Shown: one piece after another, positions 41 to 9,319 of the stretch
How positions within the stretch are numbered: position 1 is the first letter of the stretch
Layout: every line of letters begins with the position of its first letter
Assembly (NCBI GenBank): GCA_002763225.1
Contig: PFAI01000026.1
Span: forward strand, 426-13,171
Origin: Candidatus Diapherotrites archaeon CG10_big_fil_rev_8_21_14_0_10_31_34
GTDB lineage: Archaea; Iainarchaeota; Iainarchaeia; Iainarchaeales; 1-14-0-10-31-34
DNA: 12,746 bases
Direction: 5' to 3'
Translations under genes and position numbers: made by a program
Notes under the pieces: model-generated
Databases searched by the model: none
The model's input: the letters and a program-made list of their open reading frames with translations, nothing else
Told to the model about the DNA's origin: nothing

Positions 41-475
41 TTATTTAACTTCAATCCAGAACCAGACTGAATAAGGTTCTTCCATTTCAGGCTTGGAAAC
101 TTCAATAACAAATTTTTGTTTTCCATCAGTTGGCTCAGTAAAAGAAATTTCTTCAGTAATTCTCTTTTTTTCTCCGTTTTCAACTGAAACAGTTCTTTCA
201 AAAAAATTCACTTGTTCGCCTTCAAAAAACATTTTGTATTCATATTCAACTGTTTTGTCTTCTCTGTTATCTATTTCAAATACAACCTGAATTTTTTCAT
301 CAACTTGAGCTGAATTCACAATTTTATCTGGAATCAAATAAACCTGGGTAAAAGTTTCCGGCTTGACATTCAAATAAGAGTAAATCATTAAGAAACCCAA
401 AACTATAATTAAAACCACTACAAGGCCTTTAAACAAAAAATCATCTGTTTTATCATCAGTTTTATCTGAATCCAT
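41..475 (-). CDS. Single-pass membrane protein with DUF1616-like (Ig/CARDB-like) extracellular domain
   Basis: 144-aa ORF with an N-terminal hydrophobic helix (FLFKGLVVVLIIVLGFLMIYSYL). It is followed by ETFTQVYL...VVFEIDNRE..TVEYEY and ends in VWFWIEVK, resembling from memory the C-terminal part of archaeal DUF1616 proteins. A TATA box lies 23 nt upstream. Confidence 0.7.
   Translation of the reverse strand: MDSDKTDDKTDDFLFKGLVVVLIIVLGFLMIYSYLNVKPETFTQVYLIPDKIVNSAQVDEKIQVVFEIDNREDKTVEYEYKMFFEGEQVNFFERTVSVENGEKKRITEEISFTEPTDGKQKFVIEVSKPEMEEPYSVWFWIEVK
441..466. repeat. 12-bp imperfect tandem duplication encoding DKTD-DKTD
   Basis: tcatctgtttta followed by tcatcagtttta (one mismatch) at the 5' end of the 41..475 gene. 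Confidence 0.7.
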
Positions 476-1096: not shown

Positions 1097-1822
1097 TCAG
1101 GCAGTCTTTAAATTAAGTTTTTCAATTCCTTTTTCTTTTAATTCCGAATAAAACTCTTTTATTGTTGAAAAAGTTTTCCAGTTGTTTTTTTCAGCAATTT
1201 TTTTTAGTTCTTTATCAGGCTGAACGCAGACAGGAAACTCAACTTCTTGCATCATAAAAGAATCCTGGTCTGAATCCCCAAAAGCAAAAGACTTTTTTGT
1301 ATCAAGATTTTTTTCTTTAATTAAATCCAGTAAAATCTCTTTTTTTGTTTCATGCCCCCACATTTGATTCAACAGGTTTCCGGTGTAAACTCCTTTTTTT
1401 ACTTCAAATTTTGTTCCAATAACCAGATCAAAAGGCAGTTTAGTTTTTAATTCCTCTAAGATTTCTTCAAATGACCTGGAAATTGCAATCAAATAATAAT
1501 CTTTGTTTTTCAGGTAATTCATTACTTCAATTGAACCGGGAAAAATCTTGTCGTATTCTTTCATGAATTCTTTTGCCTGTTCTTCAATTTCTTTTTTGTT
1601 TTTTCCTTTAAAGCCTTCAGCCCATGCATTTAAAATATAATTTCCTCTTTCACTCCAAGAAATCTTTCCTGACCCATGATGCCTGATTGTAGTTTGAATT
1701 TCATTTAAAACCTTTTTTGGAAACTTTTTTCTTTTCACAAGCCATTCAATAAAGTCAGTCGGAATAGCCATTTCCAGTAAAGTTCCATCAACATCAAAAA
1801 CCGCAAACTTCATAAACATCAT
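1097..1822 (-). CDS. HAD-superfamily subfamily IB phosphatase (SerB/PSPase-like)
   Basis: HAD motif I FDVDGTL, motif II ISRS, motif III Lys (TKK) and motif IV GDSDQD, plus the family-typical G.YTG segment. The track start at 1858 overlaps the upstream gene; the ATGs at 1822/1819/1813, just after the upstream stop, are more likely. Confidence 0.88.
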   Translation of the reverse strand: MMFMKFAVFDVDGTLLEMAIPTDFIEWLVKRKKFPKKVLNEIQTTIRHHGSGKISWSERGNYILNAWAEGFKGKNKKEIEEQAKEFMKEYDKIFPGSIEVMNYLKNKDYYLIAISRSFEEILEELKTKLPFDLVIGTKFEVKKGVYTGNLLNQMWGHETKKEILLDLIKEKNLDTKKSFAFGDSDQDSFMMQEVEFPVCVQPDKELKKIAEKNNWKTFSTIKEFYSELKEKGIEKLNLKTA

Positions 1823-1826
1823 TTTT

Positions 1827-4205
1827 TTATTTTTGTTTTTTGATTGAATGGCCTCCAAACTGTTCTCTTAAAGCAGAAAGAATTTTTCCGGTATAACTGG
1901 GGTTTTTTTCAGATAAAATTCTGAACTTTAATGCATCTTCAATTACCTGAGTTTTAACTTTTAATTCTTTTGCTGTTTTAACAGTCCATTCGCCTTCACC
2001 TGTATGCGAAACTACGCCAGAAACTTTTTCAAGATTTTTTCCATGCAATTCAAAAGCTTTTTTCAGCCAGTCAATTAATCTTGATTCAATTACACTTCCA
2101 TTATTGTATATTTCTGCTACATTCTGCAAATTCAGATTAAAATCTGATTTTTTCATTACCTCAAATCCTTCTGCAATAGACTGCATCATCCCATATTCAA
2201 TTCCATTATGAATCATTTTAACAAAATGCCCTGCTCCTGCTCCATCAAAAAACTTGTAACCGTTTTTTTGAGCTAAATCAGAAAACAAAAATTCCAGTTT
2301 ATCAAATAATTGTTTTTTTCCTCCAATCATAATACAAGAACCATATAATGCTCCATAAGGCCCTCCGGAAACTCCTGCATCAATAAAATTAATTTTTTGT
2401 TTTTCCAGTTTCTTAAATCTTTTAACTGAATCCTTGTAAAAAGAGTTTCCACCGTCAATTATAATGTCATCTTTTTTAAGATAATTAATTAAGCCTTTTT
2501 CTCCAAACAAAACTTCTTCAACTGGTTTTCCTGCAGGCACCATAACCCAAACAAGTTTTGGACTTGAAAGAGAATCAGTTAATTCTTTAATTGAATTAAA
2601 TGCATTTAATCCTTCTTTTTCTAATTCTTTTGTTTCTTTTAAATCCTTGTTATACCCTGAAACCTTCCAGCCTTTTTTCATTAATCTTCGAGCAATATTG
2701 CCTCCCATTTTCCCCAAGCCAATTACCCCAATTTCTTTTTTCAATATTTCTTTTGGCGGTTCTTCAGAGTTATTAATAAACATTGATTCAAGAATTGGCT
2801 TGTCTGTTCCGGAAGAATACTTTTTCAGCGGAACAAGATTTTTGTCCCAAGAATTAATTATCGGGTCAGTGTAACGCCACATTTCTTTTATTTCTTCAAC
2901 TGAAACAAATAAAGTCTGGTCTCCTGCAATACAATCCAGCAGTAATTGTTCATACTCCTCAATATACTGAATTCTGTTTTCCTGGTCTCTTAAAAGAAAA
3001 CTAAAAACCCTGTTTTCTATTTCAAAATCAAATCCGGGTTTTTTAGAAGAAAAATTCAAAGTAATTTCTTCTTTTGGCTCCAAAGTAAACACGATTTTAT
3101 TTTTATAGTGTTTTCCTTCAGGGCAAAGACAGGGAACAGGATGCCTGAAAGTAACAATAATTTCTTTTCTTTGTTCTTTCAAATTTTTTCCGCTTTCCAG
3201 AATTATTGGTGTCCCATGCCATCTGGGCGAATCCAAGAAAGCTCTTGTTTTGAAATAAGTTTCAATATTAGAGTTTTTTTTAACTCCCGGAATTGAAGTG
3301 TAATCATCAAACTGGGCTCTAAAAGAAAAATTTTTTATTTCTTTTTCTGTTGGAGTAATTAATAATTTTAATATTTCAGCTCTTTTAGCTCTGATTGATT
3401 CAGCCTTAAATTCAGTTGGATGCTCCATTGTAGCTAAAGCAAGCATTTGAAGCAAATGATTTTGTCCTACGTCTCTTAAAGCACCAAAATTATCATAAAA
3501 TTCTCCTCTCTGCTTTACTCCTATCTTCTCCCATAACTTAATTTCAATTTTTTCAATAAAACCTGAATGCCAGCTTTTTTCAAAAATATTATTAGAGAAA
3601 CGAAAACTCAAAATGTTTTGAAGCATTTCTTTTCCTAAATAATGGTCAATAATGTAAATTTGTTTTTCTTTAAACAATTTTCCTAATAAAGCATCAAGTT
3701 CTTTTGAAGTCTTTAAATTTTCTCCAAAAGGCTTTTCAACAATAACTCTTGTCCAGCCTTCTTTTGGACCGCAAAGCTGAGTTAAACCTGAATCAGATAA
3801 ATTATTGAAAATTGATTCATAAAATTTCGGTGAAGCAGCAACATAAAAAAGCTTGTTAGAACAAATCCCCCATGAATCATCTAATTGCTTAATGATTTTA
3901 GAAATTTTTTCATAATCTTTTTTGTTTTCAAATAATCCCTGAGTATAAGAAAGATGTTCAAGAAACTCTTTAAGAATTTTTTCATCTAATTTTTCGCCTT
4001 TATGTTTTTTGATTATATTAGAAACATATTTTTGAAATTCATTTTTAGGGCAAGGGTCTTTAGCAAATCCTACTAATTTAAAATATTCAGGCAGTTCCTG
4101 TTTTTCAAATAAATGAAACAAAGCAGGAATAATTTTTCTTTTCATTAAGTCTCCGGTTGCACCTAAAGCAATCAAAATAGTCGGAATATTATTATTAGCT
4201 TTCAT
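1827..4205 (-). CDS. zwf-gnd: Fused glucose-6-phosphate dehydrogenase (N-terminal, about aa 1-470) and short-type 6-phosphogluconate dehydrogenase (C-terminal, about aa 489-792)
   Basis: Zwf motifs GATGDL, EKPFG, IDHYLGKE and RDVGQNHLLQ. Gnd motifs IGLGKMG, IDGGNS, DAGVSGG, GAGHFVKMIHNGIEYG and ALREQFGGH. One uninterrupted frame with linker INNSEEPPKEI. Confidence 0.95.
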   Translation of the reverse strand: MKANNNIPTILIALGATGDLMKRKIIPALFHLFEKQELPEYFKLVGFAKDPCPKNEFQKYVSNIIKKHKGEKLDEKILKEFLEHLSYTQGLFENKKDYEKISKIIKQLDDSWGICSNKLFYVAASPKFYESIFNNLSDSGLTQLCGPKEGWTRVIVEKPFGENLKTSKELDALLGKLFKEKQIYIIDHYLGKEMLQNILSFRFSNNIFEKSWHSGFIEKIEIKLWEKIGVKQRGEFYDNFGALRDVGQNHLLQMLALATMEHPTEFKAESIRAKRAEILKLLITPTEKEIKNFSFRAQFDDYTSIPGVKKNSNIETYFKTRAFLDSPRWHGTPIILESGKNLKEQRKEIIVTFRHPVPCLCPEGKHYKNKIVFTLEPKEEITLNFSSKKPGFDFEIENRVFSFLLRDQENRIQYIEEYEQLLLDCIAGDQTLFVSVEEIKEMWRYTDPIINSWDKNLVPLKKYSSGTDKPILESMFINNSEEPPKEILKKEIGVIGLGKMGGNIARRLMKKGWKVSGYNKDLKETKELEKEGLNAFNSIKELTDSLSSPKLVWVMVPAGKPVEEVLFGEKGLINYLKKDDIIIDGGNSFYKDSVKRFKKLEKQKINFIDAGVSGGPYGALYGSCIMIGGKKQLFDKLEFLFSDLAQKNGYKFFDGAGAGHFVKMIHNGIEYGMMQSIAEGFEVMKKSDFNLNLQNVAEIYNNGSVIESRLIDWLKKAFELHGKNLEKVSGVVSHTGEGEWTVKTAKELKVKTQVIEDALKFRILSEKNPSYTGKILSALREQFGGHSIKKQK

Positions 4206-4357
4206 AACAAAAAAAAGAAGCGAAAAAGTTAAATTTGGATAAACTCAGCCAAAAAAAACAATTAAAAAAGAATCAAATTCAAATAAACATGAAAATGCTA
4301 AAATAACAAAAAAAACCTGATTTTCATTCTGTAAAATAAATCCAAACCAAAAAAAAA

Positions 4358-4558
4358 TCAGATTTTTCTTATTCCGTCGCACATCGGGAAAGCCTTGCAG
4401 CCCCAAAAAGCACCGAATTTTCCTTTTCTAATAGTCATTTCCAGTTTGCAGTTAGGACACAAAGGAAACTTAATTGAAGATTTTGCATGCCTTGAACACA
4501 CAGGAATTCCTTTTGAATTTAATTTTGTTGCAGTATTACCGCATTCAGCGCAATTCAT
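4358..4558 (-). CDS. Small double zinc-finger protein with C-terminal topoisomerase I-type C4 zinc ribbon
   Basis: 66 aa: CAEC...CSRH, then CPNC..EMTIRKGKFGAFWGCKAFPMC, which matches the zf-C4_Topoisom pattern. A T-tract follows the stop on the minus strand. Confidence 0.85.
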   Translation of the reverse strand: MNCAECGNTATKLNSKGIPVCSRHAKSSIKFPLCPNCKLEMTIRKGKFGAFWGCKAFPMCDGIRKI

Positions 4559-4606
4559 TTAAACCAGAAAAAGAAAAAAAGAAAGAAAAGAATTTAAAGG
4601 CATTGG

Positions 4607-4613
4607 AAAAAAA
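4607..4613 (-). terminator. Oligo-T terminator after tRNA-Thr
   Basis: Run of T on the minus strand directly after the discriminator base. Confidence 0.55.
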
Positions 4614-4685
4614 AGCTGGCGAAGGGACTTGCACCCCCAACCTTTGCTTTACGAAAGCAATGCACTGCTATTGTGCTACGCCAGC
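4614..4685 (-). tRNA. tRNA-Thr(CGU), intronless, CCA not encoded
   Basis: Minus strand folds as GCTGGCG TA GCAC AATAGCA GTGC A TTGCT TTCGTAA AGCAA AGGTT GGGGG TGCAAGT CCCTT CGCCAGC T. It has a perfect 7-bp acceptor stem, a 4-bp D stem, a 5-bp anticodon stem with CGT, C2-G71 and a U73 discriminator. Confidence 0.92.
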
Positions 4686-4774
4686 AAAACTGTTCTGCCA
4701 GTTCACATACATTCATTATTTTCGCTTTTCAGCTAAATAGCGCTGCACTAAAAAATTATGTTAAAAACAGTTTA

Positions 4775-6271
4775 TTAAATTTCTTTAAACGTTGTTTTGC
4801 CTGTTGAAAGCTTCCACAATAGTTCAGGCAGAGAATTAATTGAAACTCTTTTTTGTTCAGTTGAATCCCTTTCACGCAAAGTAACAGTCTGGTCTTTCAA
4901 AGAATCAAAATCAAAAGTAATTGCAAAAGAAACACCAATTTCATCTATTCTGGCATAACGTTTTCCTATAGAACCTTTTGAATCAAAAAAAACAGAAATC
5001 TTGTATTCCAGCAAATTATCATATAATTCTTTTGCTTTTTCATACAAACCGTCTTTGCTGACTAAAGGAAATATTCCAGCAACAAAAGGAGCCACTTTAG
5101 GGCTCAAAGAAAGATACAAACGTTTTTCTCCTTTTTTTTCTTCTTCTTTCAAAGCTAATTCAAGCAAAACATAAAGGGTTCTGTCTACTCCGGCAGACAT
5201 TTCATATACATGAGGAAAAAATTCTTGGTCTTCTTCTTTTATTTTCAGATTAGCTGAAGAAACTTTTGAATGACCTTTTAAATCATAATCAGTTCGATAA
5301 TTGTTTGCAACTAATTCAATCCATCCAAGAGAAGTTTCAACTTCAAAATCCCAGCCTTCTTTAGCATAAAAAGCTCTTTCCTCTGAATCAACTTCCCTGA
5401 ACCTTAATTTTTCTTTTGGAATTCCTAATCCTTCATAAAATTTTTGAATTTTTGAAAGATAATAAGCAATTAATTTTCCTGAAACAATTTTTTTTGAAAC
5501 TAAATCTTTTGCTTTAATTAATTCTTCTTTCTTTTTTCCTTCCAACAAAACTCTTACCTCAAAATTTTCTATTTCCTTAAAATTTTCTGTTTCATTTATT
5601 TTAAATGGATTAAAAAACACTTCAATTTCCATTTGATTAATTTCTCTGATACGGAGAATTGAATTTCTTGGGGCAATTTCGTTTCTAAAACATTTTCCTG
5701 TCTGGGCAATTCCAAATGGAAGATTTTTTCTCATTGTTTTTTGGATTCGACTGAAATTCAAAAAAATGTTCTGGCAAGTCTCAGGCCTTAAGTAACCTTT
5801 GAGTTTTCCTGTTGCACCAATATCTAATCCCATCATTAAATTAAATTTTCTTGTTTTACCTAATTCGCCTTTACAAGAAGGACATTTTATTTTTTGTTTT
5901 TGAATTAATTCATCAAATCTTTCAACAGGAGTTCCTTCAGTTAACTCAAATTCTTCTCCAAGCAAAGAATCCGCACGATGAAGTGCATGACATTTTAAAC
6001 ACTGGACAAGAGGATCATTAAAATTATCTAAATGCCCTGAAGCCTTAAACACTTTTTCTGGAAGGATTTGACAGCCATCAATTTCAACAAAACCTTCTTT
6101 TTCAACCAAATCTTTTCTCCACGCATCAAGAATTCGGTTTTTTATTGCTGTTCCATAAAAGCCATAATCCCAGAAACCACTAAATGAGTCTCCGTAAATC
6201 TCGGCTGAAGGAAAAAAAATACTTTTCCTTAAAGCCAAATCCATTAAAACTTCAGACTTTTTTTGTGCCAT
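4775..6271 (-). CDS. glyS: Glycine--tRNA ligase, alpha2 (archaeal/eukaryotic) type
   Basis: Motifs FWDYG, ASGHLDNFNDP, LRPETCQ, FRNEIAPR, RIREINQMEIE and EMSAGVDR, with a C-terminal anticodon-binding domain (GSIGKRYARIDEIG...TVTLRERDS). Confidence 0.97.
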   Translation of the reverse strand: MAQKKSEVLMDLALRKSIFFPSAEIYGDSFSGFWDYGFYGTAIKNRILDAWRKDLVEKEGFVEIDGCQILPEKVFKASGHLDNFNDPLVQCLKCHALHRADSLLGEEFELTEGTPVERFDELIQKQKIKCPSCKGELGKTRKFNLMMGLDIGATGKLKGYLRPETCQNIFLNFSRIQKTMRKNLPFGIAQTGKCFRNEIAPRNSILRIREINQMEIEVFFNPFKINETENFKEIENFEVRVLLEGKKKEELIKAKDLVSKKIVSGKLIAYYLSKIQKFYEGLGIPKEKLRFREVDSEERAFYAKEGWDFEVETSLGWIELVANNYRTDYDLKGHSKVSSANLKIKEEDQEFFPHVYEMSAGVDRTLYVLLELALKEEEKKGEKRLYLSLSPKVAPFVAGIFPLVSKDGLYEKAKELYDNLLEYKISVFFDSKGSIGKRYARIDEIGVSFAITFDFDSLKDQTVTLRERDSTEQKRVSINSLPELLWKLSTGKTTFKEI

Positions 6272-8059: not shown

Positions 8060-9319
8060 ATGAACTCAAAAAATTTATTTGGATTATTAATTATAACAAT
8101 TTTATTTTTTGGATGTATTGATCCAACCCCAATAGAAAAACAAGTTTTAGATGACTCAAAATCAACTGCTGTTGGAGTAAACGAAACAGTTAAAGGAAAC
8201 AACGAATTTGCATTAGAAATGTATTCAGAATTAAACAAGGAAAGCGAAAATTTATTTTTTTCTCCTTGGAGCATTTCAAGCGCATTAGCAATGACTTTTG
8301 AAGGAGCAAAAGGGCAGACAAAAGAAGAAATGAAAAATGTATTGCATTTACAGGAAAACGATTTGGAAAGAAGAAGCGGTTTTGCAAAAATATATAATCT
8401 GCTGAACAAAAATAATTCAGAGTACGAGCTTTCAACTGCAAACGCTTTATGGGCACAAAAAAATTACCCTTTTTTAGAAGACTATGTTAATACAACAAAA
8501 AAATATTATTCAGCTGAATTCACTAACATGGATTTTATAGGAAAAACAGAAGAATCAAGAAAAACAATTAATTCCTGGGTTGAAAAACAAACAAACGACA
8601 AAATAAAAAACTTGATTCCAGAAGGAATACTTAATCCATTAACAAGACTTGTGCTGACTAACGCAATTTACTTTAAAGGAGACTGGGAAATCCAGTTTGA
8701 CAAAACAAAAACAAAAAAACAAGACTTTAAAGTAAACGAAAACACTACAGTTCAGGTTGACATGATGTCATTAAAAAAAGGTTCAGAAGAATTTAATTAC
8801 GCTGAAACAAATGAACTACAGGTTCTGCAGATGAATTACAAAGGAAACGAGCTTTCAATGATTGTACTGCTTCCAAAAAACAGTATTTCAGAAGTAGAGT
8901 CAATGCTTTCAGCAGAAAAACTGGAAGAATGGAAGAAATCAATGCATGAAAGAGATGTATATGTTTATTTTCCTAAATTCGTGTTTGAAACAAAATATCT
9001 TATTGCAGACAACTTAAAAGAAATGGGAATGCCGACTGCTTTCTCTGACACTCAAACAGATTTCACTGGAATGTATGATGCAAACAAAACAATGGAAAAC
9101 ATTTTTATCAGTCATGTAATCCATCAGGCTTTTGTTCAGGTAGATGAAGAAGGAACCGAAGCTGCAGCAGCAACAGCAGTAGTAATGAAAGCAATGTCTG
9201 CAGGACCAATGGATATTCCTGAATTCAAAGCAGATCATCCATTTATTTTCTTAATACAAGAAAATTCAACCGGAAGCATTTTATTCATAGGAAAAGTAGT
9301 TGACCCGACAGCAGGATAA
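8060..9319 (+). CDS. Serpin (serine protease inhibitor), predicted lipoprotein
   Basis: Motifs NLFFSPWSI, LVLTNAIYFKGDW, hinge EEGTEAAAAT and C-terminal signature FKADHPFIFLI...ILFIGKVVDP. The N-terminal signal peptide ends in LFFG-C19. Confidence 0.96.
   Translation: MNSKNLFGLLIITILFFGCIDPTPIEKQVLDDSKSTAVGVNETVKGNNEFALEMYSELNKESENLFFSPWSISSALAMTFEGAKGQTKEEMKNVLHLQENDLERRSGFAKIYNLLNKNNSEYELSTANALWAQKNYPFLEDYVNTTKKYYSAEFTNMDFIGKTEESRKTINSWVEKQTNDKIKNLIPEGILNPLTRLVLTNAIYFKGDWEIQFDKTKTKKQDFKVNENTTVQVDMMSLKKGSEEFNYAETNELQVLQMNYKGNELSMIVLLPKNSISEVESMLSAEKLEEWKKSMHERDVYVYFPKFVFETKYLIADNLKEMGMPTAFSDTQTDFTGMYDANKTMENIFISHVIHQAFVQVDEEGTEAAAATAVVMKAMSAGPMDIPEFKADHPFIFLIQENSTGSILFIGKVVDPTAG

Follow-up and report, generated by a model that had tools for sequence, protein, structure and literature searches.

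How an archaeon came to encode two bacterial-type dehydrogenases of the oxidative pentose phosphate branch as one protein is the question raised by the locus described here. The locus lies in a window of 12,746 nt, the whole stretch of DNA that was analysed and to which all window coordinates refer, from contig PFAI01000026.1 of Candidatus Diapherotrites archaeon CG10_big_fil_rev_8_21_14_0_10_31_34. This genome, a member of Iainarchaeota/Diapherotrites within the DPANN archaea, is designated G000, and its congeners G001 to G005. The element in question is a fused zwf-gnd gene, joining glucose-6-phosphate dehydrogenase (G6PDH, Zwf) to 6-phosphogluconate dehydrogenase (6PGDH, Gnd). We consider it quite probable that the product is a bifunctional enzyme of the oxidative branch, that it belongs to a lineage of fused or adjacent zwf and gnd genes from bacteria of the candidate phyla radiation (CPR), and that it entered Iainarchaeota already fused, by inter-domain transfer.

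A single frame encodes two dehydrogenase modules

The gene and its parts are given below. Conservation refers to 120 fused homologues, and a column is counted as conserved where at least 118 of the 120 have the same residue.

1827..4205, minus strand: fused zwf-gnd coding sequence, a single ATG-to-TAA frame of 792 codons plus the TAA stop at 1827-1829.
2766..4205, minus strand: Zwf module, residues 1-480 (G6PD_N plus G6PD_C), delimited by Pfam, NCBIfam and solved relatives.
2736..2765, minus strand: inter-domain tether, residues 481-490, with low predicted local confidence (pLDDT) and no conserved column.
1830..2735, minus strand: short-form 6PGDH module, residues 491-792, delimited by Pfam, NCBIfam and solved relatives.
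3627..3647, minus strand: DHYLGKE, residues 187-193; D187, H188, Y189, L190 and K192 are conserved columns, and H188 is present in 71 of 71 Zwf rows.
3456..3464, minus strand: QNH, residues 248-250; all three are conserved columns, and H250 is present in 71 of 71 Zwf rows.
2193..2219, minus strand: KMIHNGIEY, residues 663-671; K663, M664, H666, N667, G668, I669, E670 and Y671 are conserved columns.

An earlier inspection of the letters alone (the sequence-only reading) had placed both dehydrogenases in one 792-residue frame with these three motifs intact. The open reading frame (ORF), its translation and Pfam searches confirm this, on the minus strand, which that reading had left unstated; the plus strand has stops throughout 1827..4205. 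In the Zwf half, G6PD_N (PF00479) matches residues 13-197 (E 2e-55) and G6PD_C (PF02781) residues 200-479 (E 3.3e-79), both near full length. NCBIfam model TIGR00871 (zwf) scores 455.4 bits against a cut-off of 400.6, with residues 9-480 aligned to profile positions 3-479 of 486. The best solved relatives are 9emm (1.2e-85), 6d23, human G6PD and 1dpg. The G6PDH of haloarchaea is an unrelated enzyme of the short-chain dehydrogenase/reductase (SDR) type.

The Gnd half, with matches to NAD_binding_2 at residues 491-647 (E 1.7e-46) and to 6PGD (PF00393) at residues 659-768 (E 4e-21), is of the short form: the 6PGD profile is matched only at positions 1-116 of 290, and the half is about 300 residues long, without the latter part (one half) of the C-terminal domain found in the long form. 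Two NCBIfam models exceed their cut-offs, NF007161 (362.7 bits against 271; residues 491-791 on profile positions 2-301 of 302) and TIGR00872, gnd_rel (343.6 against 297.2), and the long-form models fall well under theirs (TIGR00873, 216 against 427; NF006765, 235 against 413). The best solved relatives are 6vpb (1.1e-61), 8ihe (Gnd2), 4e21 and 6xeq. The half aligns end to end with such stand-alone short-form enzymes (6vpb, 8ihe/9ijb, 4e21, 6xeq; E 1e-57 to 1e-61) and keeps their catalytic block, KMIHNGIEY aligning with KMVHNGIEY of 6vpb and 8ihe; unlike the fused half, they are free proteins of 332-358 residues.

Of 144 conserved columns, 81 fall in Zwf and 63 in Gnd; the tether has none. DHYLGKE we take to be a substrate-binding and catalytic motif of G6PDH, with QNH as a further catalytic block, and KMIHNGIEY presumably carries the catalytic Lys and Glu of 6PGDH. 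The Zwf half also has GxxGDL (G15, T17, G18, L20) and EKPxG (E157, K158, P159, G161), both conserved and aligned to 9emm, which we assume from the G6PDH literature to form the coenzyme fingerprint. In the Gnd half, G496, L497, G498 and G501 of the GxGxxG motif, presumably of a Rossmann fold, are conserved. The tether (...NNSEEPPKEILKKE... at about residues 479-490) varies in length among the 120 homologues, in which the segment aligned to residues 475-491 has 7 to 41 residues, with a mode of 16-17. An AlphaFold2 model built from a 50-sequence alignment has a mean pLDDT of 85.3 and a pTM of 0.62, and the only residues with pLDDT under 50 are 1-3 and 481-486, a profile suggestive of two rigid bodies joined by a flexible tether. 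Purifying selection acts on both halves, with dN/dS (the ratio of nonsynonymous to synonymous divergence, dN and dS) between G000 and G004 of 0.140 for Zwf and 0.183 for Gnd, and both halves look active.

Both halves fall within a CPR lineage

The best 120 database matches to the window protein are all 764-839 residues long, and all have the four Pfam domains, with full-length identities of 55-85%. Identity is 85% to the protein of the congener G004 and 55-63% to 118 fused proteins of other organisms, CPR among them. An organism is named for 19 of the 120, namely 15 CPR/Patescibacteria, one "bacterium" and three archaea. The order of domains, Zwf then Gnd, and the alignment position of the tether are the same as in the CPR-type fused lineage.

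Trees for each half were built from fused genes, adjacent pairs and split genes by quick IQ-TREE searches under LG+C20, with support from the Shimodaira-Hasegawa-like approximate likelihood ratio test (SH-aLRT, given in brackets). In the Zwf-half tree of 71 rows, a CPR-type clade of 45 rows (100) sits on a stem of length 1.04, and the window and G004 sequences lie inside it, within nested clades of 39 (98), 34 (99) and 32 (95) rows; the split zwf genes of Iainarchaeota fall on the far side (97). In the Gnd-half tree of 77 rows, a 48-row CPR-type clade (96) contains the window sequence, and the split archaeal gnd genes are again on the far side. A full-length tree of 38 fused proteins unites the window and G004 (100) and joins them with P0006 and two Nealsonbacteria proteins (96). 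Because the two halves are placed congruently in the CPR clade, the gene would have arrived already fused.

The distribution of the family is patchy in the host phylum. Of 215 genomes in the phylum, 26 have any match at E <= 1e-20, and a high-identity single frame is present in three: G000, G004 (85%) and G027 (59%). In another Iainarchaeota family, f23, the genes are split in 17 of 23 genomes, with identities of 33-38% for zwf and 43-49% for gnd. They are ordered gnd-pgl-zwf or pgl-zwf-gnd, and the cluster includes a PF01182 lactonase. These clusters thus serve the same pathway in the same phylum, but differ from the window in having three genes, lactonase included, in another order, and in lying on the opposite side of both trees.

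A match at E <= 1e-30 is present in 111 of 401 evenly sampled genomes of the CPR phylum, and 21 matches extend over both halves. Sixteen of these have no internal stop, and one of the other five (in G215) was verified as a single frame. Thirty-four loci (L002 to L035), mostly CPR-labelled, comprise 14 single frames, 12 adjacent zwf-to-gnd pairs of the same sequence type, six with the Gnd part only, and two, from Nitrospirota, in which gnd is accompanied by a more distant zwf farther downstream. In CPR loci the gene may stand beside sugar-catabolic genes, as with GH57, GH15 and ROK in L018 and phosphoglucose isomerase (PGI) and ROK in L029. Other bacteria have gnd followed by zwf (Chloroflexi, Nitrospirota) or zwf followed by gnd (Bacillota), at 30-37% identity.

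Several zwf and gnd pairs of the fused type have no more than one stop codon, or 3 nt, between the two frames. Examples are L004:3459-5868, from a CPR genome, and L090, from G110 of f23, where one TAA intervenes; G221, G405, G423 and G509 of the CPR sample are likewise among these near-fused pairs. Such pairs could be recent fissions, incipient fusions, read-through sites or sequencing errors. In a separate observation, the gnd genes of the Nitrospirota loci L017, L027 and L079 lie inside the CPR-type clade and their zwf genes outside the corresponding Zwf clade, so the two halves have different histories in that phylum.

The fused gene occupies a site that is empty in congeners

The features that flank the gene in the window are these.

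41..475, minus strand: DUF1616-like membrane protein in the far flank (Pfam E 4.2e-07; 29.9 bits, under the 31.6-bit cut-off).
1097..1813, minus strand: HAD-family hydrolase in the downstream flank, with a conserved ATG at 1813-1811, 13 nt past the TAA of the fusion.
4206..4357, minus strand: AT-rich intergenic region upstream of the fused gene, whose last 45 nt or so, with an AATTTAA block, are shared with G004.
4358..4560, minus strand: small Zn-ribbon ORF in the upstream flank, start not fixed, stop TGA at 4358-4360.

The host genome assembly is 1.04 Mb, 81.5% complete and 0.55% contaminated, and the sequencing runs that hold the window stretch are groundwater or aquifer metagenomes. Its gene content marks the contig as archaeal: the genes include those for Nop5, fibrillarin, a TFIIE-alpha-like protein, a CDP-alcohol phosphatidyltransferase and myo-inositol-1-phosphate synthase. 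For the adjacent glycyl-tRNA synthetase (GlyRS), the 21 named homologues comprise 14 Diapherotrites, two Iainarchaeum, four labelled "archaeon" and one Micrarchaeota, with none bacterial. The view that a bacterial-type Zwf and 6PGDH share one chain in an archaeal genome, put forward in the sequence-only reading, is upheld by these genes.

All six genomes of the genus share a block with the order Nop5, GlyRS, intervening genes, Zn-ribbon ORF, (HAD), DUF1616-like ORF. The Zn-ribbon ORF has tblastn identities of 77-90% in five of five congeners, its G004 orthologue matching PF01396 (Zn_ribbon_Top1); the DUF1616-like far flank is common to all six, the G004 ORF being 58% identical; and window 4349-4598, in the upstream flank, has 84% DNA identity to G004. 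In G001 and G003 the HAD gene comes immediately after the Zn-ribbon ORF, with gaps of about 160 nt and about 70 nt. In G000 the 2.4-kb fused gene occupies this gap. In G004 the fused gene, again a single frame in the same position, lies between that Zn-ribbon ORF and the DUF1616-like ORF, the HAD gene being absent. The fused gene is also absent from G002, which has two HAD genes at the site, and from G005, which has no HAD gene. Because flanks are shared by two separately assembled genomes and the site is empty in four others, a chimeric contig is excluded and an insertion/deletion polymorphism is established. In the lineage of G000 and G004, the gene would have landed between the Zn-ribbon ORF and the HAD gene and been kept under purifying selection since. 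Between G000 and G004 the fused gene has dS 0.62 and dN 0.095, similar to the neighbouring GlyRS with dS 0.79 and dN 0.114; with host-like divergence and host-like GC, the gene is not a very recent arrival. In G027 the gene is found at another locus, next to a P-type ATPase, on a contig of 5,142 nt with 45% GC.

The junction is not an assembly artefact. An identical protein is present on six contigs, and assembled contigs of three further groundwater runs span the junction codons (2732-2765) and both gene ends with no indel. Their coverage is 1725-2834 in X3; 1500-2504, 2526-4081 and 4082-4700 in X4; and 2583-4035 in X5. The sole difference within the gene is a synonymous change at 1842. A 223-nt contig of run X1, at depth 2, links position 2645 to 3541, with one side of the join represented by just 21 letters, and was treated as noise.

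Several further observations concern the neighbourhood. The stretch of about 45 nt that bears AATTTAA is, by its sequence, a candidate archaeal promoter. A 32-nt overlap between the fusion and HAD frames, considered as a sign of coupling, was rejected, since it reflects an over-extended TTG start at 1858; coupling is further opposed by the presence of HAD at the same place in congeners without the fusion, and by its absence from G004. Compared with window 4206-4775, G004 (L129:8686-11542) has about 3.3 kb extra between the Zn-ribbon ORF and GlyRS. This extra segment, which encodes among others a nucleotidyltransferase (PF18765/PF01909) and a protein of the Fic/DOC family, makes the syntenic block variable at a second spot. 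Just downstream of the Nop5-fibrillarin pair, window 8060-9319 on the plus strand encodes a serpin (PF00079, E 1e-125) that is full-length and begins with a hydrophobic segment near its N-terminus.

Pathway context and the lactonase step

The Zwf module would convert glucose-6-phosphate to 6-phosphoglucono-delta-lactone, and the Gnd module would convert 6-phosphogluconate to ribulose-5-phosphate and CO2 by oxidative decarboxylation, each of the two steps reducing one NAD(P)+. The protein is pictured as two independently folded modules that would hang on a flexible tether of about ten residues without conserved sequence. The intervening hydrolysis of the lactone is not encoded in the fused protein (no PF01182 match at E <= 0.01). 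The fused steps being 1 and 3, what the first module produces is not what the second consumes. Direct channelling by the fusion appears less likely; the most likely benefit would be equal, 1:1 co-expression of two redox steps, together with inheritance and transfer as one gene.

No separate lactonase was recognised in the host. G000 and G004 have no match to PF01182, TIGR01198 or PF04199 and none over cut-off to PF10282; across the six genomes of the genus, PF01182 and PF04199 are found in 0 of 6 and PF10282 over cut-off in 0 of 6, with TIGR01198 at zero in G000. The HAD protein, PF04199 "cyclase" proteins, and proteins of YbhE type and DevB type were considered as the host's missing lactonase, and none was supported. 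Hydrolysis would therefore be spontaneous, or carried out by an enzyme that these models do not recognise.

A protein of the PF04199 "putative cyclase" family of metal-dependent hydrolases occurs near zwf and gnd elsewhere. It is found just past a CPR zwf/gnd pair (L018:6358-6993), about 1.8 kb beyond an Actinomycetes-labelled fused gene (L003:8118-8792), and, in the Iainarchaeota genome G015 (L085:2735-3610), between zwf and gnd, where f23 has its lactonase gene. From this placement, the PF04199 protein at the three loci may be a non-orthologous 6-phosphogluconolactonase; the family is absent from the genus of the window.

The rest of the route would be supplied by the host. A ROK-family kinase, present in six of six genomes of the genus, would provide glucose-6-phosphate, and ribulose-5-phosphate would be taken up by RpiA, Rpe, transketolase and transaldolase, the non-oxidative branch of G000 comprising two RpiA, Rpe, Tkt and Tal. 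Congeners without the fusion have the same kinase, so the gene would add an NAD(P)H-yielding, decarboxylating route to an existing non-oxidative branch. For the reverse ribulose monophosphate route in the host, TIGR03128 gave only matches under its cut-off, on the Rpe frame, with no hexulose-phosphate synthase over the threshold, and 6-phospho-3-hexuloisomerase was not searched for. The ROK-family kinase gene of G000 (G000:C31:11950-13543) lies about 200 nt upstream of one of the two RpiA genes, an arrangement that suggests a small sugar-to-pentose gene pair.

Weighing the alternatives

Several points weigh against an arrival by transfer of a working, pre-fused enzyme. All trees are quick searches, with SH-aLRT support only, and are unrooted, so the direction of donation, probably from CPR bacteria, rests on nesting and on CPR diversity and not on a root; organism labels of the database matches are those that depositors gave to metagenome bins. 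The presence of the Nitrospirota gnd genes of L017, L027 and L079 in the Gnd-half clade indicates that this half has passed between phyla. A tree of GlyRS, a single gene, does not unite G000 and G004 as sisters (G000 groups with G002 at 98, and G004 with G001 at 93), so the pattern in the genus needs losses or within-genus recombination besides one gain. Composition shows no foreignness, the GC of the fused gene being 0.307 against 0.308 for the genome. An approximately unbiased (AU) test does not separate one acquisition in the phylum from two (p 0.73). The junction was checked on assembled contigs, not raw reads. At 81.5% completeness, a lactonase of G000 could be unassembled, but G004, at 92%, is also without one. 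No RNA run is among those listed as holding the stretch, and no enzyme assay of any fused member was found in the literature.

The host-like composition and divergence, and a monophyly of the three Iainarchaeota copies that the AU test does not reject, would also suit ancient vertical inheritance in Iainarchaeota or DPANN archaea, or passage from DPANN archaea to CPR bacteria, with loss from most lineages. We regard this as improbable, since carriers make up 3 of 215 genomes in the phylum against 21 full-span matches in 401 CPR genomes, the archaeal copies sit several supported nodes deep in CPR diversity in the Zwf tree, the G027 copy is at another locus, and the empty sites of G001 and G003 are short, intact intergenic gaps. 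An artefact, with a CPR fragment mis-assembled or mis-binned into an archaeal genome, would be easiest to imagine where CPR and DPANN organisms co-occur in the same groundwater samples, as they do here, and for the G027 copy on its short contig of 45% GC. To this we give next to no credence: archaeal host genes flank the gene on both sides on one contig, the separately assembled G004 has the same placement, congeners share the flanks without the gene, contigs of X3 and X4 cross both gene boundaries, GC equals that of the genome, and the P-type ATPase beside the G027 copy is 62% identical to one in G000.

The sequence-only reading had proposed a horizontally acquired and independently fused enzyme. 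The trees, the patchy occurrence in the phylum and the empty site in congeners bear out the acquisition, whereas independent fusion does not survive comparison with the best 120 matches, which share the architecture. For zwf and gnd to have come separately or as an operon, and to have fused in the archaeal lineage, adjacent unfused zwf-to-gnd pairs offer a starting point, both in CPR (12 of 34 loci, with frames 3 nt apart in L004) and in f23 (L090, with its one TAA, and L097). Adjacency makes fusion mechanically easy, and it may have occurred more than once in the family. For the window gene, we find such a course very hard to credit, given full-length identity of 55-63% to 118 fused proteins with the same domain order and with the tether at the same position, and given that both halves lie in the same CPR clade, the phylum's own adjacent f23 genes being across both trees at 33-38% and 43-49% identity. 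It is also very unlikely that the C-terminal half is some other beta-hydroxyacid dehydrogenase, so that steps 1 and 3 of one pathway would not be joined. The fold family does include 3-hydroxyisobutyrate and tartronate-semialdehyde reductases, weak matches at 83-93 bits, and the short-form Gnd-like proteins have received less study than the long form. The two 6PGDH models are over their cut-offs, however, with the reductase models far under theirs (93 against 397, 83 against 292); the best solved relatives are named as 6PGDH, the KMxHNGIEY block is kept, and Gnd is repeatedly linked to zwf and, in other lineages, to pgl.

A four-cysteine signature and the coenzyme loops

The Zwf half of the window protein has four cysteines (minus strand) that mark the CPR-type clade: C115 (3861-3863), C145 (3771-3773), C359 (3129-3131) and C361 (3123-3125). 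They occur together in 116 of 120 fused homologues, and individually they are found in 42-44 of the 45 sequences in the CPR-type Zwf clade, compared with 0-1 of the 26 Zwf sequences outside it. C145 lies within an insertion specific to the clade. L007 is without all four, and L006 without exactly the first two. From this pattern, a metal site or a thiol switch is possible. A broader conjecture, which we rate as unlikely, is that the fused gene is a self-contained, lactonase-independent cassette which, by having both NAD(P)H-yielding steps in one gene, crosses between CPR bacteria and DPANN archaea that live together and works at once in a host equipped with the non-oxidative branch only, with the four-cysteine site as a regulatory metal site or thiol switch.

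The coenzyme would be NAD+ or NADP+, as NCBIfam 6PGDH models named "NADP-dependent" and "NAD+-dependent" both exceed their cut-offs. The beta2-loop of the Gnd half reads GYNKD, and position 520 is Arg in 69 of 120 homologues and Lys in 29 of 120. The loop begins with Asp in 8ihe, which its depositors named an NAD+-dependent Gnd2, and in 6vpb (YDHD, FDRD); the window has Asn-Lys-Asp. A switch of coenzyme after transfer was considered, as the window has Lys49-Asp50 and Lys520-Asp521 against a consensus of Arg49 (102 of 120) and Arg520 (69 of 120). It was rejected, because G004 retains Arg49 and the nearest CPR relatives, P0033 and P0040, have the same Lys-Asp/Glu loops. Separately, the Arg of the coenzyme 2'-phosphate loop, at residues 49 (4059-4061) and 520 (2646-2648) on the minus strand, covaries between the two halves. 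A Gnd Arg occurs in 1 of 18 proteins without the Zwf Arg and in 68 of 102 with it, counts that are not corrected for shared ancestry. The covariation hints at coordinated shifts of coenzyme preference.

Comparison with known fusions

Taken singly, the parts are ordinary enzymes, and their fusion has been reported before, contrary to the suggestion that it might be undescribed. A survey of fusion and fission protein families in Archaea (mSystems 2024, "Fusion/fission protein family identification in Archaea", PMC11237513) lists G6pd-Pgd as "a single fusion event" in Diapherotrites, singleton cluster 1367, and the same fusion in 60 assemblies of candidate-phyla bacteria. These fusions have the same architecture as the window and, by lineage, come from the same archaeal phylum; in the passage that reports them, the fusion receives one sentence, with no tree, locus or biochemistry. 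New beyond that account are the phylogeny of both halves, the occupied and empty sites, the evidence for selection, the pathway context with its missing lactonase, the four-cysteine signature and the three Iainarchaeota carriers. We found no other description of a CPR G6PDH-6PGDH fusion in the literature. Where PMC11606122 lists zwf, devB and gnd in Woesearchaeota bins, it mentions no fusion. The sequence-only reading had named a common and characterised prokaryotic architecture as grounds for refutation; this holds in part, with 21 spanning matches in 401 sampled CPR genomes, and no paper found characterises the fusion biochemically.

The comparison with diatoms made in the same reading is borne out. 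Phaeodactylum tricornutum has a G6PDH/6PGDH fusion, protein 54663 (Kroth et al. 2008, PMC2173943; Stover et al. 2011, PMC3148214), with the same two enzymes as the window in the same order, as one predicted chain with a short spacer that skips the lactonase step. It differs, as far as published descriptions allow comparison, in being eukaryotic and confined to one species, with a disputed gene model; Kroth et al. raise possible post-translational cleavage, and the relevant passage of Stover et al. reports no other such fusion in nr at that time. The G6PD::6PGL proteins of Plasmodium, Giardia and Trichomonas and the animal H6PD, as described in PMC3148214, likewise fuse G6PDH to an enzyme of the oxidative branch. 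Their partner is the lactonase, joining the consecutive steps 1 and 2, whereas the window protein joins steps 1 and 3 and has no PF01182 domain.

Implications for CPR and DPANN metabolism

The locus would represent a well-documented inter-domain transfer between CPR bacteria and DPANN archaea, ultra-small microbes of groundwater, supported among other things by a site that is occupied in some members of one genus and empty in others. An archaeon with only the non-oxidative branch could in this way gain an NAD(P)H-yielding oxidative branch by a single gene. The enzyme family is recurrent in CPR, where databases name the fused protein after one half only. Whether steps 1 and 3 would run without a lactonase, and which coenzyme would be reduced, are points that matter when the metabolism of CPR bacteria and DPANN archaea is reconstructed from their genomes.

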